From a virus (lineage: Duplodnaviria; Caudoviricetes), in IMG/VR virus record IMGVR_UViG_2513237354_000022, positions 1 to 64,000 of that record: 64,000 nt of DNA, one strand, 5' to 3'. The position numbers were made by a program, and so were the translations under genes. Numbering within the stretch: the stretch's first letter is position 1; each line of letters starts with the position of its first letter. Under the pieces are notes generated by a model. That model ran no database searches. It had not been told where the DNA came from and saw only the letters and a list, made by a program, of their open reading frames with translations. Positions 5,757 through 62,186 of this stretch are shown in pieces.

Positions 5757-6724
5757 TATGCGAGTCTCACGATGTAATTAAATGCAATATTGTCTACGGT
5801 ATTGGCAGCGTTTCCGGTCGCATTGATGGTCAGGCCGTGGCCGTGCGGACCCAGCGGGACAGTGTGCTGGTGAGGACCAATCACAACGGTATGGGCATGA
5901 TTGCCAGAATCGCTGGTCGCACGGTCCTGGTTACCCATATGAACATCATCCATGGAAACGTGGTAAACATCAGGGCCGCCCCCAAACCAGTCATAAGCGT
6001 GATTATGCTGGCCCTGCACATCAGTCGCCTTATTGCCGTAATCAAACACGCTGGTGTTGGGGCTGCCGAGGTCCGTTGCGGCTACCGCGCCTGTATGGGT
6101 GTGCGACTGAATGCCGCCTGCTTCAGGACTGAGAACGGCCCGGTCATCGGATTTGCCTTTAATGGTCTGGCCACGCATGTCAGGCAGCTTTCCTGAAGGG
6201 TACGCAGCGGCCAGTTGAGGATACTTTGTCGTGTCGAAGGCCTGGCCCTGAAGAATGGCGTAAAATTCAGGAGGTTTATCCATTGGCCATGGGACAGGGG
6301 CACCTACAGGATAAAAATTTACGCTGTTATCCGCATGCAGATATCGCGCATCCAGATTCGTGAGCGGAAACAGCGCCAGCCAATCGTCAGTAGTCTCTGT
6401 GGGTTCAAGAGCCGTGTCGTTCTGCGCCCGCCAGACGGTACCGCCGTTCACCACCGTAGCGCCTTTCGGCCACGTCCCCTTTTGCCAGTCCGGCCAGGCG
6501 TTCTGCTCAAGCCACAAAATCGCCTCGTCCGTTCGCTTCTGCAGCGCATTAACCCATTCCATCGGCGGAATGCCGTTAGTCGGATCGGTTACGGTTTTTC
6601 CGTCCGGGCCTTTACCGTCAGTCGTGACCCCCCAGCCTCGGGGCACGGAGGGAAAATCCAGTACCTCACCCTCATTTGCCCCTGAGGCAAAGACTTCTCC
6701 GTCAGGTCGCTTTCCTATTGCCAT
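5756..6724 (-). CDS. Tail fibre protein, prophage 1
   Basis: 322 aa; tail-collar domain ([10 protein letters not shown]...[18 protein letters not shown]), repeated HxH motifs, ends [11 protein letters not shown]. Confidence 0.92.
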
Positions 6725-24577: not shown

Positions 24578-25887
24578 CAGAAAGTCGTATCCAGAGAGAT
24601 GGAGAAGGCAGGTTTCACGATGGGGAACTGCTTCACAATGTAATAACCACCAGCGTCGTTGGGATGATCGTTGCCGGATTTTTTATCCGGCTCACCGTTA
24701 TCACCCCATACCTGCTGTTCCAGCGACTCGGTGTAAACCGGGCAACGTTTCACGTTAACCTTATAGCGACGTTCGCCATTGCCGTTGCAGAGCATGGCGT
24801 TCATGGCATTAATGCGATCCTTAACCGGCGGGTTAGCCTCATCAACAATGACATGAAAACCTGCCTGTCTGAGCTGGGCGATATCAGTGGTGCTGGCGTT
24901 ACTCGATTTCCGCGAGTCGCCTGATGCATCCGGGTAAATATAGATTTCACGCACCTTACGATAATCGTCGCCATCACAGAGCCAGAAACGCTCTTTAATT
25001 ATGCGGATCATATCCGGTGTATCGTAAGCATTGATGATTTCACTCACTGCGCGCGGCAGACCCAAGCGAAGTACGTGGACGATACCTGCCATTTTCCCCA
25101 CGTTGAAATCCATACCAATATAAAGTGGTTCGCCCGGCTGCTCTTCTTCTTCGCAGTTATTCAGTCTGCGATCAAACTGATGATAAATCGTGCCGCTGGT
25201 CAGGTTGGTGAAAAGCCCGCGCAGATACGCCTTAATCAGCTCAGACGGGTACGATTCCATCAGCGAGGGGATATAGTCCGGAGGGAGGTTTTTCTCGTTA
25301 TCAAACGTCGAAGCCTGCACCAGCCCGTACAGGGTTGTCAGCGAGGGCTTGTTGCGTACAGCTTTTACAAATTGCTGATAAACGAATTTAAATCCTTCGG
25401 GTGTGGTCGTAACGTCAATGCCGTTCCGCAGGCCTGGTACTTTATAACGCATGCGGGCAATGATTTTTCGCCAGGCTAATTCCGCTTTTTTCGCGGGCAT
25501 AACATCCAGCTCATCAATAAGCGCATTACCGATTTTGAAACCCACGATCGTCTGTGGTTTTTCCATCGATCGGCAAATCGTCGTGCCGCGGTACTGCCTG
25601 CCGACGTAGAAGTGCACCTCTTTATTACTTTCATTGATTTCAACGCGCATTCCCCAGTCAAAGGCAACCTCCTCAACCGTCGGATAAAAAATGTCGCGGA
25701 TCTGTGGATAAGTGGGTGCAAAATATCCCTGATTGATGCGGGGGTGCTCCCACATTTCTTTACAGATACCACCACATCCCACCCACGTTTTACCGGAGCC
25801 AAATCCGGCAACGTATGCCCTGAACTTGTGAGGCATGGCAAGAAATCGCGCCTGAGGAATATTAAGTGTCGGTGAGATCCCCATCAT
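24577..25887 (-). CDS. Terminase large subunit, prophage 1
   Basis: Walker A AGFGSGKT, Walker B ALIDE, TTTPEG coupling motif, GMDFNV and DH.ND nuclease motifs. Confidence 0.95.
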   Translation of the reverse strand: MMGISPTLNIPQARFLAMPHKFRAYVAGFGSGKTWVGCGGICKEMWEHPRINQGYFAPTYPQIRDIFYPTVEEVAFDWGMRVEINESNKEVHFYVGRQYRGTTICRSMEKPQTIVGFKIGNALIDELDVMPAKKAELAWRKIIARMRYKVPGLRNGIDVTTTPEGFKFVYQQFVKAVRNKPSLTTLYGLVQASTFDNEKNLPPDYIPSLMESYPSELIKAYLRGLFTNLTSGTIYHQFDRRLNNCEEEEQPGEPLYIGMDFNVGKMAGIVHVLRLGLPRAVSEIINAYDTPDMIRIIKERFWLCDGDDYRKVREIYIYPDASGDSRKSSNASTTDIAQLRQAGFHVIVDEANPPVKDRINAMNAMLCNGNGERRYKVNVKRCPVYTESLEQQVWGDNGEPDKKSGNDHPNDAGGYYIVKQFPIVKPAFSISLDTTF

Positions 25888-27103
25888 CGTCATTCCTTAC
25901 GCGGGCATCCACGACGTTAATATTAATGGCCACTGGTACCGGCTCGCTGTCCTCCGGTTCTGAAGACATTTCCCTGCGCAGTTTTTCAACTTCAAGCTGA
26001 CGCCGCTCTATTTCAATCTGCTGCAGGCGCTGAGCATATTCGCTCTCAGCTAAATAACTGATCCTAATACCGCTACACTTTAGCCAGCCCATGTTTCCCC
26101 CGGGGAATGGGCTGACGGTATTCATAAAGTGATGGACCTTTTTCAACAGTTGCCACATTGAACTGCACTGGTGATTTCGGGTTATTGTCTCATGAAGCGC
26201 CTGCCACAACCGTTCGACATGATTGACCCACGGCGAGTAAATCGGCTGGTAAATGACCCTGAACTTTGGGTTTGCTTTCAGCCAGCGCAACGTTTCACGG
26301 CTTTTGTGGATGATGTAGTTATCTACAATGAGCGTAATCGTTTTTGCACGCCGGTATGTCGCCTTCAGATGTTTTAACAGTCTGATAAATAAGGATGAAC
26401 CTTTACTGTTTCCACCAACGTAGCTGACTTTTCCCGTACCGCTGTGCAGCGCACCGGCAAGATAGTACTTTTCATTCTGGCCCGGAGTGACAACTCGTTT
26501 TTGCTGCCCGCGTAACTGCCAGTCAGCACCGATTTTCGGGTTGAGATGAATATCCACTTCATCTTCGTAAAACACGGGGTTTTCCGCACTACATTTCGCC
26601 AGTGCTTCATGGATAGCGACCATTTTTTCTTCTTTGTGTGGGTCACGGATACGCAGTGTCGGCGCGGCTCTCCGCCATACCAGGCCGGCAGCAGGTAACC
26701 ATCGCCGGATGGTTGAAGCATGTAGCGGACAACCGGTGATATCACGGATTTTTATCGCCAGAAGTTCGGTGCTCCAGCGGGAACGCTGATAACCAAAATC
26801 GCCGGGAGAATGCTTAACAAGCTCACGCAGCAATGCGCAAATATGTTCGAACGGCCAGCGCCTCCCGCGTCCTGACGGTAATGACTTCAGGCCTTCAGCA
26901 CCAGACAGAGTGAACCAGTTAATCCAGCGACCAATCGATGAGCGGGCACAGCAGAGTGTTCTGGCAACATGACTGACGGTGTCACCACGATGCAGCATCA
27001 GCATGGCGGTGAGCCGCCGGGCGTGGTTTTTGTCCTTTGTTTTATGGATAGTTTTCTGCATCAGGCGTCGTTCGGTTCTGGGTATTGGTGCTATGATCGA
27101 CAT
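25862..27103 (-). CDS. IS630 transposase ORF fused in frame to the TerS C-terminus
   Basis: 413 aa; ...CSGIRISYL joins AESEYAQRLQQIEIERRQLEVEKLRRE...DLTDT. Confidence 0.8.
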   Translation of the reverse strand: MSIIAPIPRTERRLMQKTIHKTKDKNHARRLTAMLMLHRGDTVSHVARTLCCARSSIGRWINWFTLSGAEGLKSLPSGRGRRWPFEHICALLRELVKHSPGDFGYQRSRWSTELLAIKIRDITGCPLHASTIRRWLPAAGLVWRRAAPTLRIRDPHKEEKMVAIHEALAKCSAENPVFYEDEVDIHLNPKIGADWQLRGQQKRVVTPGQNEKYYLAGALHSGTGKVSYVGGNSKGSSLFIRLLKHLKATYRRAKTITLIVDNYIIHKSRETLRWLKANPKFRVIYQPIYSPWVNHVERLWQALHETITRNHQCSSMWQLLKKVHHFMNTVSPFPGGNMGWLKCSGIRISYLAESEYAQRLQQIEIERRQLEVEKLRREMSSEPEDSEPVPVAININVVDARVRNDDDGDLTDT

Positions 27104-27203
27104 TGCTCAGTCCGGCTGGTGATTTGGGATATTCAGCGATTGATCAGATCGCATAAACCGGACTGAGTTCCCTCTAAGTGATCTACTATTCCGAGCAGTT
27201 ATT
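26053..27203 (-). mobile_element. IS630-family element, copy 2 (1151 bp)
   Basis: Same ends as copy 1; TA duplication 26051-26052 / 27204-27205. Removing it restores CTC GGG CTA GCT GAG of terS. One SNP seen versus copy 1 (3093). Confidence 0.96.
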
Positions 27204-28086
27204 TAGCCCGAGACGCTTCATAACTGCCTCAAACATCCGCTCTCTGTTGATTGTGGATATTTCCACACCGCCCTTGGTAATTTTCGTACCGGCATAAGCA
27301 AGTAGCCCAACTGAAGACAGCTTTGTTGAGTCCTGCATGACTGCGCGGCCTATACCTTCACCGTTGCACCGTGGACATTCAGGATTAGGATCGTGCGTGT
27401 GGTCGTAGCCGTACCCACCTGCATCCCGAGGCTCTTTTCGTTTCCGCTCAAGTGCCTCATAGCACTTCTCTTCAAACTCAACGGCATCACGCACTGGTAC
27501 TGATGGCCAAAGCCCCAACAGTACCGACATGCGCCACGACGATATTGCGAGATTTCGTTGGCATCGAAGGTGGCAAGCTGCCAGGCCTTTTCCAGCACCT
27601 CATCAGCCGACCCAAGCGTGCGCATAATTGAGGCTTTTTGCTGCTGCGCAATTGACTGCGCAACTGAAGTTTTCTGAAGCAACTGATAGCCAATTTGTTC
27701 TGCGCTTTTTTTACTGTAGCCAGCGCGTAAAGCAGCCTGCGTGGCATTGCTATCTTTGAGATATTCCGCAACGAAAAGGCGTTGCTGGTCAGTAAGTCCA
27801 TTACCATGGATAAGCTTTTCTGCGCATTTATCTGTATGCGCAGTGCGCAGTCTTTTCTGCGCATTTTTTTGCGTACTTTGCGCAGATGGCTTTTTTACGT
27901 AGCGACGCGCTGATACATAATTAAGCCCCTGCGCCTCACACCAGTCTTTCGGGGAGATACCGGTTTTTGCATGTGCGGACAGGAACCGTTGCTGAAGTTC
28001 GCCCCAGTCCGGTTTTGCCATTGATTAACTCTCCGTTGAAGAAGGGTAATTCAGAATGCCTGCACTTTTTTTTAAGGGCACCTGCC

Positions 28087-28260
28087 ATGTTTAAAGTTCT
28101 GATAATCAGCTGCTGCCTGCTTATCGCAGGTTGCAGTGCGCTTTCTCATCAACGGAACGATCATACTGAGTATGAAAACTCCCCGCCTGAATGTACTTCT
28201 CATGGCGATGAGCTGGACTGCTGCTGGGAGGTTCCTGACAACCTGCCCCCGGTCAATTAA
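28087..28260 (+). CDS. Small Cys-rich lipoprotein (moron, antisense to the late operon)
   Basis: MFKVLIISCCLLIAGC lipobox; 57 aa. Confidence 0.7.
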   Translation: MFKVLIISCCLLIAGCSALSHQRNDHTEYENSPPECTSHGDELDCCWEVPDNLPPVN

Positions 28261-28371
28261 TCTGTGACGCACTGTGCGTTTAATTAATAACCAGTACAGA
28301 GCAACGCCCCGCGCCGGAAATTACACCGCCGGGGAAATATTAAAAATCGCAGGATCTGCTCATCGTTCCTG

Positions 28372-28671
28372 TCAGGAATAACCAAGGAAACTGCTGCAGA
28401 TATGCTGATACTCCGCGGGGCGGACGGTCACTGTACGGCCAGAGCGGTGAACAGCAGTGTAGGTGTAATAAGACGTGCCGTTATAAAACTTTGAAAGGGT
28501 CCAGCCGTTATCGGCGGCAATCTGATCAATCTCTGTAACATAGTGAGTACAAATACAGGCTAAAATACTGGTCCAAGGAGTGGGTCTTCGTGCAATGATC
28601 TCAATGAGGTGTGTGTAAGCCGCATAACGTATCAGCCATAATTTTTCCTTAGGCCCCTTCTTCGATATCAT
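28372..28671 (-). CDS. Hypothetical protein
   Basis: 99-aa ORF with AGGGA RBS; no recognised motif. Confidence 0.45.
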   Translation of the reverse strand: MISKKGPKEKLWLIRYAAYTHLIEIIARRPTPWTSILACICTHYVTEIDQIAADNGWTLSKFYNGTSYYTYTAVHRSGRTVTVRPAEYQHICSSFLGYS

Positions 28672-28737
28672 GACATTTCCCTGGAAAGATGATAATTGCT
28701 CAACAGTATAGTTAACATGCGGAACTACACAATAAGT

Positions 28738-29355
28738 TCATGCGCGACGCCGGAAGGCATAACTGCCTATACCCTCTCTGCCAAGTTCAGTTTCTGCGGT
28801 GTTGTGCTCAGTACAGTCAAAGACCCGGCCGCCAAACCAGCGCAGCAGGCCGTCATGAGTCCAGTACCAGATATGCTCCGTCTTACGGAAATGGCGTGAT
28901 TTCAGGATAGCATCTCCATCGGCAAAAATCGGCACCGACACGAATACCCACTTTTCAGCTTTTGCTACGGCAACGTCCGGGCGGTCAATGTGCTCCACCG
29001 CGTCCCACAGGGAAAGTGCCGGGTAGCGTTCGGCGTACAAATCAGCCCACAGACCTCGCTGTTTCAGCCAATCAACCCCGGCGGGATTCACGTCATAGCC
29101 GCGGGTATTGGGCCGGGCCTCAACGAACTGGCCGGCACCGATGCCGACATCCACCAGCGGTCCATCATAATGGCGCGCCACCAGCTGAATGCGGGCCTGC
29201 GTCAACGCATGCCCCATCGGCGTGTCGGCCATCTGCTGATAGCGGGAAAAATAGTGTTCGTCATACGGGCGGTTTTGCGGTACCGGAAAATACCCCATGC
29301 CCAGCGCGGGCAGCCAGACCAGCCCGTGTTTCAGTTCGTCAAAGAACGATTCCAT
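28738..29355 (-). CDS. Class I SAM-dependent methyltransferase (cassette gene 3, prophage 1)
   Basis: DVGIGAG motif I, GYDVNP, WDAVEH; colinear with 60180-60794. Confidence 0.88.
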   Translation of the reverse strand: MESFFDELKHGLVWLPALGMGYFPVPQNRPYDEHYFSRYQQMADTPMGHALTQARIQLVARHYDGPLVDVGIGAGQFVEARPNTRGYDVNPAGVDWLKQRGLWADLYAERYPALSLWDAVEHIDRPDVAVAKAEKWVFVSVPIFADGDAILKSRHFRKTEHIWYWTHDGLLRWFGGRVFDCTEHNTAETELGREGIGSYAFRRRA

Positions 29356-30202
29356 GCAGCCACTCGTGAAGTTTGTCGTCAAAATTGCTTATGCGCCGGT
29401 CACAGTCGTGATCTGCCCGCATGCAGCGGCAGTAGTTATCGGGCATCGCCCAGCGGGTGTGGGATAAATCCATTGCCGGATCCGTTACAATTTCCGGCGC
29501 GTTATGCCCGCCACGACCGCCCGCTACCACAAACAGCGGTGTCTGATACGCGATAGCCATAGGAACCGAAAACCCTACCGGAGTGACCACGCAGGCGGCA
29601 CGCACGTAAAGGCTGCACAGCTGCGTCAGCGTCAGCTCGCCGTGGTGAAGTTTTAAATCAGCCGCGGGTTCGTCGCCTATTATCCATTCCATGCCGGGAA
29701 CGGTATCGGCCACGCTTACCACGAAAAAGTGCTGGCGCAGCCGCTGTGCGGCGCGTACCAGATACTCAGGATTGGGATTACGTGAAGCGCTGGCCCACTC
29801 TGTGCGCACGGTTGAAGGCCGGATGACCGCAACGGATCTGTCTGTCGGTATGGACGGGTGCAGATCGTTAAACTGCGGCAGGTCAAACTGCAGCGGGCCG
29901 TTCACGCCAAACTGACGCCGGAACGCCGGGATAATGCCGCCAGCAGACAAATCAGTCGGGCCGTATCCGATGCGCTTTCTGACGCCACCGCGTGGTACCG
30001 GATGGAAGACATAGCGCGACCGGAGTTCGTTTTTCTCCTGGGTGCGCAGGTGCGTACCGCTGCGGACGCATTTCACATTGAGGCCGCGATACAGTTCCGG
30101 CCAGCAGGTCCGCACATATGCGCCGGGGAAGTGGCGCAGGAACGGGCGCTGGTAGATGGAATCACCCAAGCCCAGCATTCCTTCAAAATAATACGTTGTC
30201 AC
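29339..30202 (-). CDS. GT9/heptosyltransferase-like glycosyltransferase (cassette gene 2, prophage 1)
   Basis: GMLGLGDSIY, AVIRP, LTLTQLCSL...AACVVTPVGF...A..YQTP; C-terminal CxCx4HxC. Confidence 0.78.
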   Translation of the reverse strand: MTTYYFEGMLGLGDSIYQRPFLRHFPGAYVRTCWPELYRGLNVKCVRSGTHLRTQEKNELRSRYVFHPVPRGGVRKRIGYGPTDLSAGGIIPAFRRQFGVNGPLQFDLPQFNDLHPSIPTDRSVAVIRPSTVRTEWASASRNPNPEYLVRAAQRLRQHFFVVSVADTVPGMEWIIGDEPAADLKLHHGELTLTQLCSLYVRAACVVTPVGFSVPMAIAYQTPLFVVAGGRGGHNAPEIVTDPAMDLSHTRWAMPDNYCRCMRADHDCDRRISNFDDKLHEWLHGIVL

Positions 30203-30735
30203 AGCACGTCCTCAGGTCGGGCTCGCGGAAAACAGGTCAGCACCGTGTGGCGCGAGCAGTTGATGATGCTGACCGACTGAAGGCTGTCCGCCAGACGCTG
30301 AAACTCACCCTGCCAGCGCCGGGTGCTTTCGGCGTCAGGATTTTTAAGCCCGTCAGGGTGATCCCCATGCCAGTGCGTGCCGTATTCCAGCGAGCAGTCG
30401 TAGCCCAGCAGGATGATTCGCTCAGCGCCCAGATGGACAGCAAGTTGAATGGCACGCTGGCCGGAGTTGAAAGAGTCGCTGTCGGACGGCCGGAACAGAT
30501 TAATGTCGTAGCGCAGATGCGCCCGCCCGCTGACCGTCCAGCGTTGCGCATCTGTAGCGAGTGCGGCGTGGTGCCTGTCCCACCAACTACAGTCGGCAGC
30601 AAAGAGATAATGGCATGCGGGGATCAACTGCCAGCTGGAGTTAACGGCGATAACGGGGTGAACTGAGTTTACGGCAAGATCACAGTCAGAGCGCGTCAGC
30701 GATGGACCGCTGGCAATGCAGATTACAGAATTCAT
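30199..30735 (-). CDS. Maf/MptE(DUF115)/sialyltransferase-like transferase (cassette gene 1, prophage 1)
   Basis: ICIASGPSL, IAVNSSW, NSGQRAI..A..LGA.RIILLGYD, HWHGDH, IINCSR. Confidence 0.72.
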   Translation of the reverse strand: MNSVICIASGPSLTRSDCDLAVNSVHPVIAVNSSWQLIPACHYLFAADCSWWDRHHAALATDAQRWTVSGRAHLRYDINLFRPSDSDSFNSGQRAIQLAVHLGAERIILLGYDCSLEYGTHWHGDHPDGLKNPDAESTRRWQGEFQRLADSLQSVSIINCSRHTVLTCFPRARPEDVL

Positions 30736-31068: not shown

Positions 31069-31245
31069 TTACTGACTGGTTTCCTCATCGTGGCCGAGAA
31101 TATCCGCCAGTGCGGTATCCACCGCCGAGTCAATCTGGGTATCAAGGTCAGCTTTAATCTGAGTTTTCAATGCAGTAGTGACTGCATCGGATTTCAGCGC
31201 ATTTTTTACCAGTGTGTCAGTGACGATATCTTTTACTTCTGCCAT
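31069..31245 (-). CDS. Small acidic hypothetical protein
   Basis: AAGGAG RBS before MAEVKDIVTD; 58 aa. Confidence 0.65.
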   Translation of the reverse strand: MAEVKDIVTDTLVKNALKSDAVTTALKTQIKADLDTQIDSAVDTALADILGHDEETSQ

Positions 31246-31364
31246 TTCAGGCTCCTTTTGAGTTTTGCGGCTGAACAGCCAGTCTTTTATCCACATGGTT
31301 ATAGCCTGTGGTCACGATTGATATTGTCGAGGAATGTATAAAACGCAGATGTAGCAGAGCCAAT

Positions 31365-31413: not shown

Positions 31414-31752
31414 TCAATTACTGATCTCACTTTTACTGACCTGATAAACGCTTACGCCTGTTAGAGAACACTCATCAGTTGAAGCATCATTTTTAGTGAT
31501 AATCTCATAAGATTTCCCAGCCTTGTCATAGAAAACAAAGTGATAAACCTCCGTCCATACGCCCTGCTTCTTCTTTTCCGCAGCAAGTAAATGTACTTTT
31601 GTTTTCGACTCATCCAACTGACTTATATCAACCTCTTTTTGATTCTTGAGCCATACTTCGGCCATGTTTTTTGGCCAGGATGAACATCCTGGAGCTGCAG
31701 CCAGAACACTAAGCGGAAACAAAGTTACTAAAGCCAGTAAAATCTTCTTCAT
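31414..31752 (-). CDS. Sec-exported protein, putative cognate immunity protein
   Basis: Signal peptide MKKILLALVTLFPLSVLA; two Cys; ATGA overlap with the upstream toxin-like gene. Confidence 0.65.
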   Translation of the reverse strand: MKKILLALVTLFPLSVLAAAPGCSSWPKNMAEVWLKNQKEVDISQLDESKTKVHLLAAEKKKQGVWTEVYHFVFYDKAGKSYEIITKNDASTDECSLTGVSVYQVSKSEISN

Positions 31753-32114
31753 TCAATCACCTCCAGATTTCTGTCGCCGCTGCTCCAGACAGAATGACGA
31801 ACATTTAAAGGCATAATAATGCAGCCATTAGAAGCTTCACCGGGATGCGCAGTGCTGTCACCATGAATTAAGAAGCCGGAACGGCCATACATTATGTTTG
31901 ATGCGGCAGGCGTCAGACGCATTGAATAGGCTCCTGTGTGAGGATGTTTGAATGGCGCTCCTATTGTGTATTTTCCTCTCGGCAGAGGACCAATATCGGC
32001 TGTTCCCTGCATAGTTGGGGCGTTCTTTCCTGCTCCTACTCCCGCATAGCCATTACCAATCAATTTGTTATTACGAAAAAGTTTTCCTGAGCTTTGATGA
32101 TAAATCCAGGTCAT
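31749..32114 (-). CDS. Tlde1/DUF2778-like L,D-transpeptidase-fold protein
   Basis: GPLPRGKYTI, RSGFLIHGD...ASNGCI (His-x13-Cys); no signal peptide. Confidence 0.82.
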   Translation of the reverse strand: MTWIYHQSSGKLFRNNKLIGNGYAGVGAGKNAPTMQGTADIGPLPRGKYTIGAPFKHPHTGAYSMRLTPAASNIMYGRSGFLIHGDSTAHPGEASNGCIIMPLNVRHSVWSSGDRNLEVIE

Positions 32115-32223: not shown

Positions 32224-32691
32224 TCAATCTCGATTGGTGACAATCTGTCTTATATAGTCCTGAAGATAGCTTATTTTTTGTTGGTCGCTGATGATGCCTG
32301 CTCGGATATCAAGAATGTTTTGTCGAGAATCTGAAGAGAATTCGACGGCGGCTGCATAGCCCAGGCTGCGGGTTGCTGACGCTGAGCCGGTACCGGACAC
32401 GGGGCATTTTGCGTGGACGTACATGCGGCGAGTACCATCGGCAAGCTGACGGCTAAGAGCATCATTCTGAGATTCGGCAGCACTGAGCGCCTCCGTGTGG
32501 GTTTTATCGAGTGCGGCCAGTTTCTGCTGGCGCTCCTGAATGTCGGTAATGGTGTCGAACTGTTGCCTCGTAATCTGATATGCAGCACGATAATCCTTTC
32601 GCCAGGCGACGGCTTTATCGTGATAGTGGTCAGCGGCCCAGCCCAGAGAGAGAACAGCGACTGCCAGTGCAGCAATAAGGTATTTATTCAT
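32224..32691 (-). CDS. Rz/i-spanin, prophage 1
   Basis: N-terminal TM, coiled coil, RRMYVHAKCP, QQKISYLQDYIR. Confidence 0.9.
   Translation of the reverse strand: MNKYLIAALAVAVLSLGWAADHYHDKAVAWRKDYRAAYQITRQQFDTITDIQERQQKLAALDKTHTEALSAAESQNDALSRQLADGTRRMYVHAKCPVSGTGSASATRSLGYAAAVEFSSDSRQNILDIRAGIISDQQKISYLQDYIRQIVTNRD
32271..32483 (-). CDS. Rz1/o-spanin lipoprotein embedded in Rz
   Basis: Lipobox VLAAC; Pro-rich PAAWAMQPP in an alternate frame; start uncertain. Confidence 0.82.
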   Translation of the reverse strand: MLPNLRMMLLAVSLPMVLAACTSTQNAPCPVPAQRQQPAAWAMQPPSNSLQILDKTFLISEQASSATNKK

Positions 32692-33308
32692 ACCTTGAGC
32701 GCCACCAGCGCAACCTGATATCTGGCTTTCCGATCCTCAAGGCCATTGGCACCGCCATTAATAATCTTCGTGATCGCCTCAATATCACCACCATGCTTCA
32801 GGCAACCCTTTGAGGCGTAAAACCATGCAGCCGAACGGGCGGCATACTCATCCTGTTCCAGCAATTGCGGAATTAACAGCAAATCGGCACCCAGACCAGC
32901 ACCACAATCCCGGTAATTGTCGTGGCCGGTGATCTGTATCAGGCCACGGCCACGATAATTCCAGCCGTCATTTGATCCCGGATAACCGTTACCCATTCGG
33001 TTTGCATAGACAATATTTGCTATTGCCTGCTGGTTAGCTGCGTGTTCAGTGGTGCGTCCGTATTTCTGAGCGCTTTCTGCGTCGAAATATTTCCCAAACG
33101 TAGCCAGCAAACCATCAGCCGAATAATTCAGATTCTCGACAATGCGGGTGAAACCACCGGACTCATGCCCTACCTGAGCGATAAACTTTGCCTGATCGTC
33201 AGCGGAGGTAATGCCAAACTCAGTCATTGCCGCATCAATTGGCTGAAACCAACGCGCAGCTAATTCGGCGCTGATATTAGCCGCCTTCTGAAACTGTGAT
33301 TTATTCAT
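32688..33308 (-). CDS. GH19-family endolysin, prophage 1
   Basis: FIAQVGHESGGF..ENLNYS, YRGRGLIQITG, IINGG.NGL.DR. Confidence 0.94.
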   Translation of the reverse strand: MNKSQFQKAANISAELAARWFQPIDAAMTEFGITSADDQAKFIAQVGHESGGFTRIVENLNYSADGLLATFGKYFDAESAQKYGRTTEHAANQQAIANIVYANRMGNGYPGSNDGWNYRGRGLIQITGHDNYRDCGAGLGADLLLIPQLLEQDEYAARSAAWFYASKGCLKHGGDIEAITKIINGGANGLEDRKARYQVALVALKV

Positions 33309-33631
33309 TCGCTTTTCTCTGTGCTGATGCCGGTACGCTTGGTAAATAACGCCACGGCACTATCACGCATTCGGTCAGCGCCAATAAAACCAATCATGCC
33401 GCCAACGAATGCGCCGGAATTTGCAGGAAGGCCCAAATATTCCAGAATCGCTGATACTGCTAACGCTGCAATTCCGCATACTAACGCCCCGGTAGCTGTA
33501 TAGATTTTGGGCTTTCCAGCCCTGATATCCATTAATGCCGAAATCCCTAAAGCCGTCAGCCCGGCATAAACCGACGGCAGGTATACAGCCAACCATTTCA
33601 TTGTTTGCTCAATTATTCCGTGTTTTTCCAT
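33305..33631 (-). CDS. Holin (lambda-like, 3 TM), prophage 1
   Basis: GAGG RBS before MEKHG; three hydrophobic segments; homolog of 59773-60105. Confidence 0.9.
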   Translation of the reverse strand: MEKHGIIEQTMKWLAVYLPSVYAGLTALGISALMDIRAGKPKIYTATGALVCGIAALAVSAILEYLGLPANSGAFVGGMIGFIGADRMRDSAVALFTKRTGISTEKSE

Positions 33632-33743
33632 AGTCACCTCTGGAACGGGGCGCCGTGTGAGAATAAAAAATCCCCGAATATCCAGGAGCGGCAAAGGGGA
33701 AAGGCGTTTCACTAAATTGACCTGTTAGCGGCCTTAATATGAG

Positions 33744-33815: not shown

Positions 33816-33988
33816 GGCTTTGTTGAATAATAGGTAATCATTCTGTTTTGTCTGCACTGTTTTGGTAGAAAACGCTGATGCCAGACAGAACACCGTCATA
33901 CGCAAGCATGTAACGCATTGATTTTATGTTATCTGAAACAACCGTTTTCATAGTACCACAGCATAAAATCCATTTATTCAACAAAGCC
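33816..33988 (-). mobile_element. 173-bp MITE, copy B (inverted relative to copy A)
   Basis: Same TIRs and interior as 5119-5291; flanks TAGTGGGGC / ACTCATCCC are not duplicated. Confidence 0.9.
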
Positions 33989-34056: not shown

Positions 34057-35226
34057 TTAACCGATCTGCTTAACGTGCCAGAAAATTTTATCAGCGTAGA
34101 GCTCATAACCTTTACGCTGATCTTCCAGCCAGTCATGTTTGTTGTACACCGCCATTACCCCGCCAAGTTCGTGCCCCAACATCTTTTCGGTGACATGGGG
34201 CAATATCCCTTCCTCTGACAGATTCGTTACCAGGGTGCGCCTGAAATCATGCGTACGCCATTCGGGAATATCGATTTTGCTTCTCAGTTTTCGCATGTAC
34301 AGATTGCACGATGAGCGATCTATTGCTGTGTCCAGTTCCTGACCGGGAAACATAACCGGATTTTTCATTGCAAGCAGCCTTTCAACATAAGGTTGTATCT
34401 GTTCGAAAATGGGACGCCTGATGATGTTACCCATCTTCGAATGCTCTGCTGGCGTCGTCCAGATAAGATCATCCATGTTGAATTCAGCGGGGGTAGACAG
34501 CCGCAGTTCTGAAAGGCGGGCGCCCCAAAGCAACAACATCTGGTGAAGAATTTTATTAGAAGAAAAGACTTTATTATTTTCCAGCGCCAGCCAGATTTTC
34601 GCCAGTTCGTTATAGGTGAGAACGCGCTCGCCGGTATCAGGTTTTTTTCCGATATTTTTAACGCTCAGTTTAAGCACTTCACAGGAGGGAATAAGCTGGC
34701 GGCTGATGCACCAGTTCATGACTGATCGGAGTTGCAGAAGCAGTACCCTGGCTTTCTTCTTATTGGTCTGTTCCTGCTTATCGAAAAATTGCACCCAAAG
34801 CGACACAGGGATGTTTGCTACCGGCACATCCTTAAATTGTGTGTACATGGTGTTGTACACAACTGACTTGTACAGGATGCGTGTGTTTTCCTTTAGCCCG
34901 GTAACGTACTTGTTCCACCACTCATCGAGGCAGTCTTGTAGCGTCAGTTCCCCGCTGCTGCCGACCAAATAAGTTTTGGGGTTAACCCCCTTCATGTACA
35001 ATGCCCGCATTTCGCCGACCGCTACGCGAGCCTCTTTGAGAGACATAGCAGGATAGCGGCCAAGCGTGATGCGTACAGGCTTATTTTGCCAGCGGTAGCG
35101 ATACTGAAAAGCGATGGTACCATTAGGCGTAATGCGCGCACTCAGGCCGTCAGCGTCGGTCACCTCTGCCGGGCCGCTGTAGGGCTTGCCGTTTATGCTG
35201 CGCAGTTTGGTATCGCTGAGGGCCAT
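34057..35226 (-). CDS. Tyrosine integrase with N-terminal arm-binding domain, prophage 1
   Basis: MALSDTKL start; WGARLSEL, HSKMG, HDFRRT, LGHELGGVMAVY catalytic motifs. Confidence 0.95.
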   Translation of the reverse strand: MALSDTKLRSINGKPYSGPAEVTDADGLSARITPNGTIAFQYRYRWQNKPVRITLGRYPAMSLKEARVAVGEMRALYMKGVNPKTYLVGSSGELTLQDCLDEWWNKYVTGLKENTRILYKSVVYNTMYTQFKDVPVANIPVSLWVQFFDKQEQTNKKKARVLLLQLRSVMNWCISRQLIPSCEVLKLSVKNIGKKPDTGERVLTYNELAKIWLALENNKVFSSNKILHQMLLLWGARLSELRLSTPAEFNMDDLIWTTPAEHSKMGNIIRRPIFEQIQPYVERLLAMKNPVMFPGQELDTAIDRSSCNLYMRKLRSKIDIPEWRTHDFRRTLVTNLSEEGILPHVTEKMLGHELGGVMAVYNKHDWLEDQRKGYELYADKIFWHVKQIG

Positions 35227-35238
35227 CGTTATATTTCC

Positions 35239-35284
35239 TGTACACATCCGATAGCTGTCATTCTGTACTCAATGTGTACGCAAT
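35239..35284. promoter_or_regulatory. Probable integrase arm-type sites (prophage 1 att)
   Basis: TGTACACA (35239), TGTACTCAAT (35264), TGTACGCAAT (35275). Confidence 0.6.
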
Positions 35285-35422: not shown

Positions 35423-35497
35423 GTCCTCTTAGTTAAATGGATATAACGAGCCCCTCCTAAGGGCTAGTTGCAGGTTCGATTCCTGCAGGGGACGCCA
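35423..35497 (+). tRNA. argW: tRNA-Arg (CCT)
   Basis: GTCCTCTTAGTTAAATGGATATAACGAGCCCCTCCTAAGGGCT...GGTTCGATTCCTGCAGGGGACGCCA; cloverleaf with CCT anticodon and encoded CCA. Confidence 0.97.
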
Positions 35498-35657: not shown

Positions 35658-36815
35658 ATGCTCACGGTCAAACCGATTGAAGCAGCAAAGCCAAAAGACA
35701 AGCCCTACCGCCTGCTTGATAGCAACGGGCTGTACCTTTACATACCTGCTTCCGGGAAAAAAGTGTGGCAGCTACGCTTTAAACTGGACGGTAAAGAGAA
35801 AATTTTAACCGTGGGTAAATATCCTCATGTGTCTTTGCAGGAGGCTCGCGACAAAGCCTGGCAGGCAAGAAAAGATGTGGCAGATGGTATAGATCCGGTA
35901 AGGACCAAAAAAAGGAGCGAGAAGGATAACTCATTCTCGGTGATCTATAAGGAATGGTACGCCCATAAGCGTCAGGTATGGTCTGAAGGGTACGCGACTG
36001 AATTACAGCGGATGTTTGAAACTGATATTCTCCCGCTCATAGGGGCGATGGAGATGGACGAAATCGAGCCGATGGCTCTTTTGTCTGTTGTGAGGAGGAT
36101 TGAAGAGCGTGGGGCCATGGAGAGAGCAAACAAGGCCCGGCGTCGTTGTGGTGAGGTTTTTCGTTACGCCATCGTAACAGGAAGAGCAAAGTATAACCCC
36201 GCTCCCGATCTCGCTGATGCCATGAAGGGATACAGGAAGAAGAATTTCCCGTTCCTTCCGGCTGATCAGGTCCCGGCATTCAACCAGGCCTTAGCGGGAT
36301 ATTCAGGCAGCATAGTTTCGAAGGTTGCAACGATGGTTTTGCAATACACAGCCCTGAGAACAAAAGAGCTAAGATCTATGCGATGGTCTGACGTCGATTT
36401 CGCTACTGGGCTAATTACAATTGACGAATCAGTCATGAAAAGCCGTAAACCGCATATCGTCCCTATGTCGCGCCAAGTAACTGAACTTCTTAAGACATTA
36501 AAGCCGGTCACTGAACCAGTATCGCAGTTCGTATTTGCAGGAAGAAACGATAAAAGGAAGTCGATTAGTGAAAACGCCGTTCTGCTGGTCATTCGCCAAA
36601 TCGGATATGAGGGACTGGCGAGCGGCCACGGCTTCCGCCATCAATTCAGCACCATTTTACACGAGCATGAATGGCCTTCTGAGGCGATAGAGCGCCAGCT
36701 TGCCCACACAGACAAGCACTCAGTTCGCGGGATCTATAACCACGCCCAATATCTGGATAAAAGGCGTGAGATGATGCAGTGGTGGGCTGACTGGGTAGAC
36801 GGCAACGTCACATGA
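35658..36815 (+). CDS. intS: IntS-like tyrosine integrase
   Basis: 385 aa; MLTVK.IEAAKPK.KPYRLLD, TALRTKELR, SGHGFRH, RGIYNHAQYL as in KpLE1 IntS; adjacent to argW. Confidence 0.95.
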   Translation: MLTVKPIEAAKPKDKPYRLLDSNGLYLYIPASGKKVWQLRFKLDGKEKILTVGKYPHVSLQEARDKAWQARKDVADGIDPVRTKKRSEKDNSFSVIYKEWYAHKRQVWSEGYATELQRMFETDILPLIGAMEMDEIEPMALLSVVRRIEERGAMERANKARRRCGEVFRYAIVTGRAKYNPAPDLADAMKGYRKKNFPFLPADQVPAFNQALAGYSGSIVSKVATMVLQYTALRTKELRSMRWSDVDFATGLITIDESVMKSRKPHIVPMSRQVTELLKTLKPVTEPVSQFVFAGRNDKRKSISENAVLLVIRQIGYEGLASGHGFRHQFSTILHEHEWPSEAIERQLAHTDKHSVRGIYNHAQYLDKRREMMQWWADWVDGNVT

Positions 36816-57768: not shown

Positions 57769-58389
57769 TTAAGCCAGTCGCAGCATGCACGTCCCGCACG
57801 CTCTGGCAATATCGAGATGAGCAACCTCCGCTGGCTGATTCGCCGCATCAATCATTTCCTGCACGTCCCGGCTCGCACCGTAACGGCGAACCACGCCTAC
57901 AAACTCTTCAACATCGTGGCCGCGCAGCTTCAGCTTTGGCTGCCCTTCCTGCGTGAACTTCGGCGCGCCAAATTCATCTGTCGCCTGGCAGATGTGGTAA
58001 AGCTCGTGCTCTATCAGCGCGCAGAATTCCAGATCGGAACATTGCGAACAGTAATCGGCGGCCAACGTGATGATGAACTGCGGCGCCCTGCCGAACCATT
58101 CATACATCTGCTGCTCCATCCGCGCTTTCTGCCATCCCCCAGCCCGCATTGCCACTTCTTCCGCCTGCCCCAGCACGGAACGCCCTTTCTTCTCGAAAGT
58201 GTTCGACGCCCAGAGAAAGCACAGATCCGCTTCAAGCAAATGCTGGTGGTCAGGGTTGTAGAGGTCGCCCTCATCGCTCAGGATGTGCTGATTCAGCCAC
58301 TCGCCAACGTCATTGGCGGGCATTATGCTGATGTACGGCTTCGGGTCAGGTGGCATCGTAAAATGCGCTGGTGGATGTGGTCTGTTCAT
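57769..58389 (-). CDS. Putative phage metallopeptidase
   Basis: HELYH (HExxH) plus HDVEEF..VV.RYG. Confidence 0.82.
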   Translation of the reverse strand: MNRPHPPAHFTMPPDPKPYISIMPANDVGEWLNQHILSDEGDLYNPDHQHLLEADLCFLWASNTFEKKGRSVLGQAEEVAMRAGGWQKARMEQQMYEWFGRAPQFIITLAADYCSQCSDLEFCALIEHELYHICQATDEFGAPKFTQEGQPKLKLRGHDVEEFVGVVRRYGASRDVQEMIDAANQPAEVAHLDIARACGTCMLRLA

Positions 58390-58888: not shown

Positions 58889-59165
58889 CCGCAACAGCAG
58901 CCTTGATATCGTTCTCGGCTCTCTGTGACTCCAGTGCGATCTGCTGCTTGGCATGTTGATTTGTCTCCAGAATGATGTTCGTTATTGCTACGGTGCGCAG
59001 GACATTCGCGGTGATGGTCTCAGAGGAATCAGCGCGCTGTTCTGCATCGTCAGCGCGACGCTGTTCCTCCAGAAACTTTCCATGGTAGTGATCCGCTGAC
59101 CAGACAAGACCGCCTGCAATACAGGCGATAAACGTCACAATGAGCACCCAATAACTCATTTTCAT
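58773..59165 (-). CDS. i-spanin (Rz-like), prophage 2
   Basis: N-terminal TM, coiled coil, DDCAV. Confidence 0.85.
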   Translation of the reverse strand: MKMSYWVLIVTFIACIAGGLVWSADHYHGKFLEEQRRADDAEQRADSSETITANVLRTVAITNIILETNQHAKQQIALESQRAENDIKAAVADDDCAVRVVPSGAVKRLHDYADGLRAGSGSSVTSQPDG

Positions 59166-59776
59166 ACCAGCAGCGCCGCCCGCGCTTTGTTGTAGCGGAT
59201 CTTGCGGTCATCAATGCCATTCAGGCCGCCGTTAATGATGCGCGTAACACGAGTAATATCGGCACCGTAGGCCATGCAACCTTTGGATGTGAAGAACCAG
59301 GCGGCAGAGCGTGCTGCCTGAAGTTCCTGTTCGAGCTGTTCAGGTGAAGTAACGAGGTCTAACTTCAGCGCCGCCCCGCAGGTGCGATAATTGTCGAGGC
59401 CAGTGATTTGAATTAACCCTCTGCCGCGATATTTCCAGCCGTCGCATGGCGCTTTGTTACCCAGGCGGTTGCTATACACCAGATTGGCGATGGCATCCTG
59501 GCGGGCTGCGTGTTCGGTTGTTCTGCCAAGCGCATCAGCCTGCTGCTGTGTGATCCTCTTTCCGAAGGTCGCCACCAGCGCAGATGGTGTGTAGTTCAAA
59601 TTTTCTACTACAGCGCTAAAGCCGTCTGACTCATGACCTACCTGAGCGATGAACATGGCCTGATCCGCTGGCGCTGTAATGCCGAATTCTTTCATCGCCG
59701 CATCCACTGGCTGAAACCAGCGCGCAGCTAACCCGGCGCTGATACCAGCCGCCATTTGAAATTGAGATTGATTCAT
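59162..59776 (-). CDS. GH19-family endolysin, prophage 2
   Basis: FIAQVGHES, ENLNY, YRGRGLIQITG, INGG.NG.DDR. Confidence 0.94.
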   Translation of the reverse strand: MNQSQFQMAAGISAGLAARWFQPVDAAMKEFGITAPADQAMFIAQVGHESDGFSAVVENLNYTPSALVATFGKRITQQQADALGRTTEHAARQDAIANLVYSNRLGNKAPCDGWKYRGRGLIQITGLDNYRTCGAALKLDLVTSPEQLEQELQAARSAAWFFTSKGCMAYGADITRVTRIINGGLNGIDDRKIRYNKARAALLV

Positions 59777-60105
59777 TTATTTTCCTCAGTGCTGCCGACT
59801 CCGGCACGTCTGGCAACGATAGCGAGCGCCATGTCACGAAGTCTGTCCGCCCCAACAAACCCGACGAGCGCACCAACGAATGCCCCTGAATTAGCAGGCA
59901 ACCCTAGGTATTCCAGCAATGCGGAAACAGCCAGCGCGAATATGCCGCAGATTAGCGCGCCAGTGGCGGTGTAGAGTTTCGGCTTCCCTGCGCGTATGTC
60001 GATAAGCGCTGAGATGCCCAGAGCGCATAACCCGGCGTAAACTGACGGCAGATATAGCGCGATCCATTTCATTGTTTGTTCGAAAATCCCGTGAGTGCTA
60101 TTCAT
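59773..60105 (-). CDS. Holin (3 TM), prophage 2
   Basis: GAGG RBS; homolog of 33305-33631. Confidence 0.9.
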   Translation of the reverse strand: MNSTHGIFEQTMKWIALYLPSVYAGLCALGISALIDIRAGKPKLYTATGALICGIFALAVSALLEYLGLPANSGAFVGALVGFVGADRLRDMALAIVARRAGVGSTEENK

Positions 60106-60179: not shown

Positions 60180-60794
60180 CTAAACGCGGCGGAAAGCGTA
60201 CGAAGCGACGCCCTTACGCCCTAACTGGCATTCGATGGTGTTCTGTTCGGCGCATTCGAAGCCCTGCTCAGCAAACCAACCCTTAATACCGTCGTCAGTG
60301 AAATACCAGATGTGCTCGTTCTTCCTGAAATGGTGCGAGCGAAGAATGTCTCCGGCATCGGTAAAAATGGGGATCGACACGAACACGTATTCACTGGCCT
60401 GCTGTACCGCCAGCTCCGGCTCGTCGATGTGCTCCAGTACATCCCACATCGTCAGCGCGCGCCACTGACTGGCGTAGAGGTCAGCGAATGCGCCCCGCTC
60501 GTTCAGCCAGGCAACGCCAGCAGGATTAACGTCAAACCCAAACGTTCCCGCTCGGGAAGAAACGAACTGACCGGCACCGATACCAACGTCCAGAACCGGT
60601 CCATGATAGTGACGTTCCACCAGCTCAATTCTGGACTGCGTTAATGCGCGCCCGGTTTCGGTATCAGCCAGCAGCTGATATTTCGCAAAATACTGCTCGT
60701 CATACGGGCGAGATGCCGGAACCGAATAACGACCGATGCCCAGCTCCGGGAGGAATACCAACCCGCTGTTCAGTTCCTGATAAAACGACTTCAT
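60180..60794 (-). CDS. Class I SAM-dependent methyltransferase (cassette gene 3, prophage 2)
   Basis: LDVGIGAG, GFDVNP, WDVLEH. Confidence 0.88.
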   Translation of the reverse strand: MKSFYQELNSGLVFLPELGIGRYSVPASRPYDEQYFAKYQLLADTETGRALTQSRIELVERHYHGPVLDVGIGAGQFVSSRAGTFGFDVNPAGVAWLNERGAFADLYASQWRALTMWDVLEHIDEPELAVQQASEYVFVSIPIFTDAGDILRSHHFRKNEHIWYFTDDGIKGWFAEQGFECAEQNTIECQLGRKGVASYAFRRV

Positions 60795-61641
60795 TCAGCC
60801 AGGCCTCGAATTTTGAATCAAAGTTGGAGATGCGTTTGTCACAATGGTGATCCCACGCTTCGCAGCGACAATAATTGTCCGGTATTGCCCAGCCAACGCG
60901 GGATAAATCCATCGCCGGATCGGTGACTATCTCGGGAGCGTTATGCCCGCCGCGCCCACCAGCGACAACGTAAATAGGTGTTTTGTACGCAATGGCAGCG
61001 GGCAGCGCCCAGCCGACAGGCGAAACCACGACAGCTGCATGCTCTACCAGGCGCATCAGCTCTTTGATATTGAGCTCGCCAGCGTGCATTTTCAGATCTG
61101 CTTCTGGTTCTTCACCCACCAGCCACTCTTCCCCGTCCTGCAAATCAGCAACGCTAATCACGCAGAAATGTTTCCGCAGGATTCTCGATGCGCGCAGGAG
61201 GTAATCGGGGTCAGGGTTTCGGGAGTCGCTACGCCATTCAGAACGAACCGTTGCCGGACGAATAACGGCGATCGGCTTTTGGTGCGTAAACTGCGCCGGT
61301 CCAAAGGATGGCAAATCAAGCGCTGCTGGCGTTACACCGAACTGACGGCGCATCGCATCGAATATTGAACCGCGCCGCAGATCATCCGGACCGTAAAATA
61401 TTCGCTTCGTCTGGCGTGGTGATGGCGGCGGATAAAACTTTGCGGAGCTGCGGAACTCATTTTTTCGCTGCGTCCTTAGCGCGGTATCACTTCGGACAGC
61501 TTTTACTGGCAGGTCTTCGTAAAGCTCCGGCCATGCCGTCTTGATGAATGTCCCCGCAGGCAGCTGTTTGACGAAAGCGCGCTGGTAAATGGTGTCTCCC
61601 ATTCCCAGCATGCCATCGATGTAAATAGGAGGATTCAGCAT
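60700..61641 (-). CDS. GT9/heptosyltransferase-like glycosyltransferase (cassette gene 2, prophage 2)
   Basis: GMLGMGDTIY, AVIRP, LNIKELMRLVEHAAVVVSPVGW...A..Y.TP; CxCx4HxC; C-terminal extension overlaps the methyltransferase gene. Confidence 0.78.
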   Translation of the reverse strand: MLNPPIYIDGMLGMGDTIYQRAFVKQLPAGTFIKTAWPELYEDLPVKAVRSDTALRTQRKNEFRSSAKFYPPPSPRQTKRIFYGPDDLRRGSIFDAMRRQFGVTPAALDLPSFGPAQFTHQKPIAVIRPATVRSEWRSDSRNPDPDYLLRASRILRKHFCVISVADLQDGEEWLVGEEPEADLKMHAGELNIKELMRLVEHAAVVVSPVGWALPAAIAYKTPIYVVAGGRGGHNAPEIVTDPAMDLSRVGWAIPDNYCRCEAWDHHCDKRISNFDSKFEAWLNEVVLSGTEQRVGIPPGAGHRSLFGSGISPV

Positions 61642-62186
61642 GTAACCTCGCTGATCGCCGCTTCAAGAGGTAGACGACGAAAGCAATTAAGCGCCGTCTG
61701 GCGGCTGCTATTGATGATTTGGACGCTTCCACGCAGCTGCGCCGCAACCCGGGCAAACTCGCCATGCCAGCGCTTTACGTTCGCCGCTGTCGGGTTATCG
61801 AGAACTGTATGATCGCCGTGCCAGTGGCTGCCGTTCGAGATTGAGCAATCGAAGCCCAGCAGAATGATGCGCTTTGCGCCCAGCCATTGAGCGAACAGGA
61901 TCGCTCTCTGTCCCGAATTGAATGTGCCGCTAGTATCTGTCGGGAAGAGGTTCACGCCGTATCGGGTGTGTGCTCTCCGGTTACATGACCAGCGTTCGGG
62001 GCCATCAGGCAGCGCGGGAATGTTCACATCCCACCAGCGCAGATCGCCAGCGTAAATGTGGGTGCATTCCAGTATGGTTCGCCATGATGAATTAACCGCT
62101 ATCACAGGAAACCCTGAGCGCGCAGCTATTTGACAGTCAGCGGGAGTAAGGGACGGACCAGAAGCGCAGATGATCGCCGTGTGCAT
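61635..62186 (-). CDS. Maf/MptE(DUF115)/sialyltransferase-like transferase (cassette gene 1, prophage 2)
   Basis: IICASGPSL, IAVNSSW, NSGQRAI..A..LGAKRIILLGFD, HWHGDH. Confidence 0.72.
   Translation of the reverse strand: MHTAIICASGPSLTPADCQIAARSGFPVIAVNSSWRTILECTHIYAGDLRWWDVNIPALPDGPERWSCNRRAHTRYGVNLFPTDTSGTFNSGQRAILFAQWLGAKRIILLGFDCSISNGSHWHGDHTVLDNPTAANVKRWHGEFARVAAQLRGSVQIINSSRQTALNCFRRLPLEAAISEVTC

Follow-up and report, generated by a model that had tools for sequence, protein, structure and literature searches.

A three-gene cassette occurs twice in one window

We analysed a 64,000-nucleotide stretch of DNA (hereafter the window), positions 1 to 64,000 of the virus record IMGVR_UViG_2513237354_000022 (Duplodnaviria; Caudoviricetes), and focused on a three-gene cassette predicted to encode two glycosyltransferases and a methyltransferase. 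One copy of this cassette, copy A, lies at 30735-28738 on the minus strand and consists of three intact open reading frames (ORFs); a collinear homologue, copy B, is found on the same strand at 62186-60180. In copy A, gene 1 (30199-30735) encodes 178 amino acids (aa) from an ATG at 30735, in an ORF open to 30777, matches phrog_4603 (2.7e-57) and is glycosyltransferase-like, of a putative Maf/Cst-II-like (DUF115/MptE-like) type. Gene 2 (29339-30202; 287 aa), whose start overlaps the stop of gene 1, matches phrog_6804 (2.7e-97) and is a predicted GT9-like glycosyltransferase of the GT-B fold. Gene 3 (28738-29355; phrog_6564, 5.5e-82) probably starts at an ATG at 29355, in an ORF open to a TTG at 29382, and encodes a putative class I S-adenosylmethionine (SAM)-dependent methyltransferase. 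The counterparts in copy B are gene 1 at 61635-62186 (PF01973, 34.8 bits), gene 2 at 60700-61641 (phrog_6804, 2.2e-111), a 313-aa protein whose C-terminal tail overlaps gene 3, and gene 3 itself at 60180-60794 (PF13489, 42.1 bits).

The initial annotation of this DNA had described the two sets as the same three genes, aligning almost without gaps in spite of many substitutions, and BLASTP comparison of the proteins bore this out. Gene 1 is 54.7% identical between copies over 172 aa with two gaps (6e-63), gene 2 is 58.8% identical over 284 aa with four gaps (2e-122) and gene 3 is 60.6% identical over 203 aa with no gaps (7e-98). At the nucleotide level only ~760 bp could be aligned, at 68% identity.

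The window holds two prophages, one on either side of a tRNA-Arg(CCT) gene (35423-35497), with the late genes on the minus strand in both. Copy A sits between the lysis gene Rz and a broken small terminase gene (terS) of prophage A, and copy B between the antiterminator gene Q and the holin gene of prophage B. The different placement of the two copies, between the lysis genes and terS in one case and ahead of the holin in the other, is therefore as the initial annotation had reported it.

The two copies are old and each is under purifying selection

Synonymous differences between copies A and B are at or past saturation (pS 0.66-0.80), and the corresponding non-synonymous values (pN) are 0.26-0.32. 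As the dN/dS ratio between the copies is not computable for genes 1 and 2 at such divergence (pS 0.76-0.80), nearer relatives were used. The closest relative of copy A is in phage contig L009 (82, 89 and 86% identity for genes 1, 2 and 3, respectively), which also carries an intact terS and a large terminase gene (terL) 97.7% identical to that of prophage A, and the closest relatives of copy B are in contigs L021, L025 and L029 (93-98% identity). Against these relatives dN/dS for genes 1, 2 and 3 was 0.22, 0.12 and 0.09 in copy A and 0.13, 0.05 and 0.15 in copy B. When single-base changes were assigned to branches with an outgroup, the branch leading to copy A alone carried 12 non-synonymous and 54 synonymous changes, and its sister branch 6 and 47 (Fisher p = 0.44). 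Copy A shows no relaxed constraint, and the decay of prophage A is therefore recent relative to the branch of copy A.

These data bear directly on the possibility that copy A arose from copy B by recent local duplication and is at present drifting, for which nothing speaks except that the two share a window. The alignable DNA is far from near identity, being 68% identical over 760 bp only; synonymous sites are saturated and pN reaches 0.26-0.32; each copy is much more similar to relatives on other phage contigs than to its counterpart; A and B fall in separate clades with support of 96-99; and neither the dN/dS values of 0.05-0.22 nor the branch-specific ratio of 12:54, which resembles the 6:47 of the sister branch, shows drift. 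Recent local duplication, which the initial annotation had also rejected, is almost certainly not the origin of the pair.

The same annotation had drawn attention to the intactness of the three ORFs beside broken packaging genes. The ORFs are indeed intact and terS is broken, but the contrast is not special to the cassette: terL (97.7% identical to that of L009), the portal gene (92.6%), the lysis genes and most other late genes of prophage A are intact too, so the state of copy A is no evidence of special retention.

The predicted enzymes resemble two sugar transferases and a methyltransferase

Gene 1 of copy A scored 26.8 bits against PF01973, below the gathering score of 34.6, and gene 1 of copy B reached 34.8 bits; many relatives carry a precomputed PF01973 match. 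Through its AlphaFold2 (AF2) model, which had a mean predicted local distance difference test score (pLDDT) of 91.5, gene 1 of copy A matched Maf (5mu5) at Z 14.7 (root mean square deviation (rmsd) 2.7, 163 of 178 residues) and Cst-II (1ro8) at Z 12.3, and its modelled fold is that of a central Maf domain, similar to Cst-II.

For gene 2, neither copy gave a Pfam match at E up to 0.1 or reached the gathering score of PF01075, and a gene 2 profile searched against PDB sequences retrieved only WaaF (E 0.04). The AF2 model of gene 2 from copy A (pLDDT 96.1) matched 3tov (Z 18.6), TibC (Z 18.2), WaaF (Z 17.7) and WaaC (Z 15.8), with other GT-B folds at or below 11, and on this model gene 2 has a GT-B fold closest to GT9 structures. 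An invariant aspartate, D14, in a GLGD motif would fall where D110 of TibC and the catalytic aspartate of WaaC lie. The fold matches give alignment ranges only, so that this equivalence and that of the HWHGDH motif of gene 1 with the catalytic histidine of Cst-II are unconfirmed residue by residue. Four further residues of gene 2, C258, C260, H265 and C267, show no variation across 33 sequences and make up a CxCx4HxC cluster in the late part of the C-lobe, ahead of the last helix.

Gene 3 scored 19.8 bits (copy A) and 42.1 bits (copy B) against PF13489, for which the cut-off is 27. The motifs DVGIGxGxF and WD..EH are invariant, as are D69, G71, G73 and G75 in 16 sequences, and the nearest solved sequence is the O-methyltransferase UbiG (E 0.002); judged by these motifs, gene 3 is predicted to be a class I SAM methyltransferase with its motifs intact. 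Searches of the three proteins as single sequences against PDB sequences returned nothing meaningful, and NCBIfam gave no matches.

Natural fusions link these families to one another: gene 2 homologues were found fused to gene 1, to a methyltransferase, to a canonical PF01075 (GT9) domain and to a LicD-family domain (PF04991). Three large fusions stand out among the relatives of gene 2 (P0311, P0250 and P0248): one combines a canonical GT9 domain, an intein with a LAGLIDADG domain and a gene 2 domain, one DUF115 with three gene 2-like domains, and one a LicD-family domain with gene 2.

The cassette occupies three stable slots in late operons

We mined viral contigs for the gene 2 family and retained the best 80 of at least 582 matches as loci. 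A further 120 loci came from two scans that took the homologue of phage PAJU2 and a distant relative as seeds, and 15 of these lay on contigs sampled before. The loci are thus the best matches to three seeds, and slots were called from clusters of neighbouring genes with PHROG-annotated flanks; 176 loci were classified, seven loci of the three scans were not assignable to a slot, and the global, unrooted gene 2 tree has 182 rows. The order gene 1, gene 2, gene 3 was found in 80 of the 80 loci of the first scan. In nearly all of the 120 further loci that had upstream sequence, tblastn or a gene 1 hidden Markov model placed gene 1 upstream of gene 2, either adjacent or within ~2 kb. The gene 2 family as a whole comprises 891 representative clusters at 50% identity (E up to 0.001); the cassette is also present in jumbo phages of Klebsiella and Serratia, and all named hosts of cassette phages are Gram-negative.

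Slot I (Q, triad, holin, endolysin, Rz) is occupied in 49 rows, copy B among them, and slot II (lysis genes, triad, an optional HNH endonuclease, terS, terL) in 31 rows, among them copy A. Slot III (~100 loci) is the head-tail neck module, with the portal, protease, major capsid and adaptor genes upstream and Neck1, tail terminator and major tail genes downstream, a layout that agrees with phages D3, PAJU2 and Mulvp2. The flanks of slot I are mosaic: the Q genes come from three unrelated families, the holins from four and the endolysins from two.

Built separately, the trees of gene 2, gene 1 and gene 3 each required a single change between slots I and II, with Shimodaira-Hasegawa-like approximate likelihood ratio test (SH-aLRT) values of 98, 98 and 96, respectively, and none of 500 label shuffles did as well. 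In the global gene 2 tree the three slots required two changes, the minimum possible, as one branch (98) set slot III apart from the other loci and slot I formed a clade (99). Some loci mix alleles: in L020 gene 1 is 68% and genes 2 and 3 are 96% identical to copy B, and in L010 gene 3 is 56% and genes 1 and 2 are 76-82% identical to copy A. Alleles of the three genes reassort inside the cassette, and the block is not indivisible.

Two proposals of the initial annotation are accordingly retained in modified form. The triad had been said to move as a unit, and the genes do stay together in the same order, with the same deep split in all three gene trees, but alleles of gene 1 or gene 3 reassort against gene 2. 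It had also been proposed that membership of the late operon is conserved rather than position; all three slots do lie in the late operon, but the slot itself is very stable, with two changes over 176 loci. On our reading moves of the cassette, made as a block, have been very rare, and the pair in the window represents two old slot lineages that met in one chromosome, A from the 'before terminase' lineage and B from the 'between Q and holin' lineage. Such strict slot stability amid mosaic flanks offers an example of phage recombination that preserves gene order.

Transcriptional and genomic context of the two copies

In prophage B, a pR'-like promoter (62355-62328, TTGAAA-16-CATAAT, at the end of Q) and a strong tR'-like terminator (62246-62221, formed by an 11-bp stem and the T run after it) lie on the minus strand between Q and gene 1, which begins 35 bp past the terminator stem-loop. 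By its resemblance to the corresponding region of lambda, which comes from pattern matching only, this unit would put copy B first in a Q-dependent late transcript. Pattern scans found no promoter-like site between the tR'-like terminator and gene 1 of copy B or upstream of gene 1 of copy A, and no strong terminator after gene 3. In these scans the cassette therefore lacks the hallmarks of a lambdoid moron, namely a promoter and a terminator of its own. No Q gene or late promoter was found upstream of the holin of prophage A.

RNA-library contigs from three studies (Logan) contained genes 1-2 of copy A only at low depth, like terL and the holin gene; the depth of Logan contigs is a poor measure of expression, giving no ranking and no strand and allowing for DNA carry-over, and hints weakly at an essentially silent copy A. 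Two neighbouring regions, 31414-32114 and 28022-28737, occurred in higher-depth contigs. The former, between Rz and copy A on the minus strand, is a unit composed of a Tlde1/YkuD-domain gene (PF10908, 4.6e-11) and an overlapping gene for an exported protein of 112 aa, followed by a terminator at 31389-31369. The latter consists of 716 bp between gene 3 and terS that have no counterpart in L009, and contains a 99-aa ORF on the minus strand and a ~56-aa ORF on the plus strand with a lipoprotein-like LIAGC motif, both without a family match.

The public record describes a single 82-kb 'provirus', which is in reality both prophages, one of them defective, as the tRNA-Arg(CCT) gene lies between two divergent integrase genes: that of prophage A at 34057-35247 on the minus strand and the second at 35658-36815 on the plus strand. 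From right to left, prophage A reads integrase, holin (33305-33712, phrog_126), GH19-type endolysin (32688-33308, phrog_181), Rz (32224-32691, phrog_13), the Tlde1-like unit, a DUF826 gene (31069-31296), the triad, terS, terL and portal, with the holin, endolysin and Rz genes on the minus strand. The holin comes directly after the integrase, which indicates that the early region is missing. By tblastn with the intact terS of L009 (~335 aa), terS of prophage A (phrog_51, minus strand) was recovered in three pieces, 28021-27494, 27491-27204 and 26053-25928, having been disrupted by a frameshift near 27491 and by insertion of an IS630 element whose transposase ORF occupies 25862-27103. RNA-library contigs join the end of this element (27206/27207) directly to 33815/33816, where a second, short and non-coding element (33816-33988), located upstream of the holin, has its edge; this second element has a very high k-mer depth and is probably multicopy, with terminal repeats in common with IS630 (26050-27206).

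Prophage B reads, from right to left, a RusA-like gene, Q, the triad, holin, endolysin, Rz/Rz1, a metallopeptidase-like gene, terS and terL, with a Q-like antiterminator at 62329-63078 (minus strand; phrog_753, 1.3e-56) and the holin (59773-60105; phrog_126) and GH19-type endolysin (phrog_181) directly downstream of copy B within 59162..60105, also on the minus strand. The gene at 57769-58389 (minus strand), between Rz1 and terS, matches PhageMetallopep (PF18894, 2e-43), in favour of which its PHROG label of 'transposase' was dropped, and keeps this position in many relatives with a slot I cassette. Besides the triads, prophages A and B share a holin (75% identity), an endolysin (66%) and distant contractile-tail genes (24-40%); no similarity between their terminases was detected.

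A proposed function and its alternatives

Building on the homology, gene order, slots, purifying selection and folds described above, we infer which sugars are donated, in what order the steps run and what the acceptor is in the following scheme. Prophages A and B each brought their own member of one widespread phage cassette, from deeply separated lineages, and the three enzymes, putatively cytoplasmic, would be made with the late operon, in prophage B as the first genes after the pR'/tR'-like unit. Gene 1, with its predicted Maf/Cst-II fold, would transfer an ulosonic acid from a host CMP-sugar; gene 2, with its predicted GT9 fold, would add heptose from host ADP-heptose; and gene 3 would O-methylate the product, the acceptor most likely being a protein of the assembling virion. 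Genes for making sugar nucleotides were not noted beside the cassette and all of the named hosts are Gram-negative, which makes CMP-Kdo (Kdo, 3-deoxy-D-manno-oct-2-ulosonic acid) and ADP-heptose the most plausible donors. To our knowledge, CMP-Kdo is the sole CMP-ulosonic acid made by all known hosts. A virion protein is favoured as acceptor because the cassette is embedded among neck genes in ~100 loci, because two of the best fold matches, Maf and TibC, are protein O-glycosyltransferases, and because the gene 1 homologue of PAJU2 was deposited as 'structural protein', a label that we could not trace to evidence. The invariant CxCx4HxC cluster of gene 2 may point the same way, given that an iron finger in the C-lobe of TibC helps it to bind its protein substrate.

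The cassette is a genuine but uncharacterised phage module that is under selection, and its proposed function is a well-constrained hypothesis: the probable product is a small sugar chain bearing a methyl group, perhaps attached to the virus particle. Taken whole, the explanation that the window holds two lineages of a late cassette making a methylated glycan, with a virion protein as its likely acceptor, has in our judgement an even chance of being correct. The further proposal that phages of Gram-negative bacteria decorate their own virion proteins with a methylated Kdo-heptose-like glycan made from host CMP-Kdo and ADP-heptose, by means of a widespread and undescribed system whose slot stays fixed amid exchanged neighbours, is offered tentatively, and we would expect it to fail rather than to hold.

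A number of observations weigh against a virion glycan. Both the glycan and its acceptor are predictions. The LPS (lipopolysaccharide) GT9 enzymes 3tov and WaaF tie with TibC as fold matches of gene 2, so that protein and LPS acceptors are not separated by fold, and gene 2 as well as genes 1 and 3 of copy A score below the Pfam gathering thresholds. Cassette phages have no common virion protein family; A and B, for example, share only distant tail genes, and D3 is a siphovirus. Among 10 long relatives of gene 2 there was no fusion to a virion protein; in five of them the Pfam matches were limited to glycan-enzyme, methyltransferase or intein domains, and in the remaining five there were none. 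In phage P1, pmgO and pmgP, late genes of which pmgO is a gene 1 homologue, were dispensable for plaque formation in a CRISPR interference (CRISPRi) screen (PMC10695390), and the paper on the D3 capsid structure is silent on glycosylation.

The enzymes might instead remodel the host envelope by placing a methyl group and either Kdo or heptose on the inner core of LPS or on another lipid-linked glycan, and so bring about superinfection exclusion or keep progeny off debris. Slots I and II are typical cargo positions in lambdoid phages, the nearest GT9 structures include the LPS heptosyltransferases WaaF (Z 17.7) and WaaC (Z 15.8), WaaF is the only PDB sequence match of gene 2 (E 0.04), one gene 2 relative is fused to the LicD-family domain PF04991, and all hosts are Gram-negative. 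However, copy B follows a strong terminator and shows no promoter-like site of its own, late expression would leave little time to replace the LPS of the outer membrane, and the cassette also resides inside the head-tail neck module in ~100 loci and in jumbo phages of Klebsiella and Serratia; the low depth of genes 1-2 of copy A in RNA-library contigs, like that of silent late genes, adds weak evidence in the same direction. We consider envelope remodelling unlikely. Somewhat further from our expectation is an acceptor unrelated to the virion, either a small molecule, such as a signalling nucleotide, or a host protein, such as one on the cell surface, which would fit the lack of a virion protein common to cassette phages and the small-molecule look of the methyltransferase but would leave the consistent placement among particle-building genes unexplained; counter-defence genes, moreover, are usually early genes.

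Hypermodification of phage DNA late in infection, with a sugar placed on a base as by Mom or by clusters that glycosylate 5-hydroxymethylcytosine (5hmC), has a precedent in phage GT-B enzymes that attach Kdo and heptose to 5hmC from the E. coli metabolite pool and are encoded in clusters near structural genes (bioRxiv 10.1101/2023.12.21.572611). Against it, the 82-kb record contains no C5-cytosine methyltransferase, gene 3 is closest to small-molecule O-methyltransferases, and gene 2 matches GT9 rather than the T4 beta-glucosyltransferase (beta-GT); a search of the record for Tet/JBP was also empty, though its control gave no match either. DNA as the target is in our opinion very improbable.

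With a virion glycan still the preferred reading, the cassette could affect particle stability, host recognition or the way in which the immune system recognises therapeutic phages. Being diverged and present in a single strain, copies A and B form a natural pair for cross-complementation.

Relation to known systems

The same three families in the same order, at 38-57% identity, are present in PAJU2 (ORF010-012), D3 (orf7, orf12 and orf13), Enterobacter phage Mulvp2 and Klebsiella phage Eowyn. These differ from the copies in the window in that their cassette belongs to slot III, the neck module, or lies in the genome of a jumbo phage, and in D3 neck genes separate gene 1 from genes 2-3; the literature reports no function for any of the four. 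In D3 (L001, record 5762-6409) the gene 1 homologue has its conserved N-terminal ASGPSL motif upstream of, and in frame with, the annotated orf7 start (5951), so that orf7 is either annotated too short or made by a shift from orf6.5; the upstream region, which overlaps orf6.5, has a GTG at 5813 as its only candidate start. The conserved late cassette spans D3-like, lambdoid, P1-related and jumbo phages.

Phage P1 offers a more distant parallel in the late 'putative morphogenetic' genes pmgO and pmgP (hdmB and hdmC in P7), both MptE-like/DUF115 and located in a late operon, pmgO being 38% identical to gene 1. P1 differs in that genes 2 and 3 have no homologue there and that a glycosyltransferase of another kind, pmgQ, lies nearby. 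The paralogues pmgO and pmgP (L003, record 79592-80778) together with pmgQ look like a variant late sugar-transferase set without the GT9-like and methyltransferase partners. In the literature on pmgO/pmgP, PAJU2, phage glycosylation, heptosyltransferases and the D3 capsid we found no functional study of the cassette other than the P1 essentiality screen, and no paper describing virion glycosylation for Gram-negative phages.

Among characterized enzymes, the bacterial autotransporter heptosyltransferases (BAHT) TibC and Aah (PDB 4rap/4rb4) resemble gene 2 in their GT-B catalytic domain (Z 18.2, rmsd 2.8, 248 residues) and in an N-terminal aspartate matched by range offsets only. The cysteine-rich cluster of gene 2 late in the C-lobe, putatively of a metal type, may be a counterpart of the TibC finger but has another spacing and includes a histidine. 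In TibC the Cys4 iron finger (Cys339/342/358/370) is inserted in the C-lobe and supports dimerization and binding of the protein substrate, and residues 1-97 form a beta-barrel (PMC4358343). Gene 2 lacks this N-terminal beta-barrel, its model aligning to TibC residues 96-391 only, at 11% identity. Gene 1 is similar to Maf (PF01973; Z 14.7 to the central Maf domain, and at the Pfam cut-off for copy B) and to Cst-II (GT42; Z 12.3), and differs from Maf in comprising only the ~180-aa core, without the flanking domains.

At the level of gene organization, the clusters for 5hmC-DNA glycosylation likewise combine phage glycosyltransferases, sometimes with methyltransferases, beside structural genes and draw on host sugar pools, but with other enzyme families and in other hosts. 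Virion glycosylation is documented for mycobacteriophages and for giant algal viruses. The mycobacteriophage genes for it, glycosyltransferases that are sometimes accompanied by methyltransferases, also lie beside structural genes and use host sugar pools, and belong to families and hosts other than those of the cassette.

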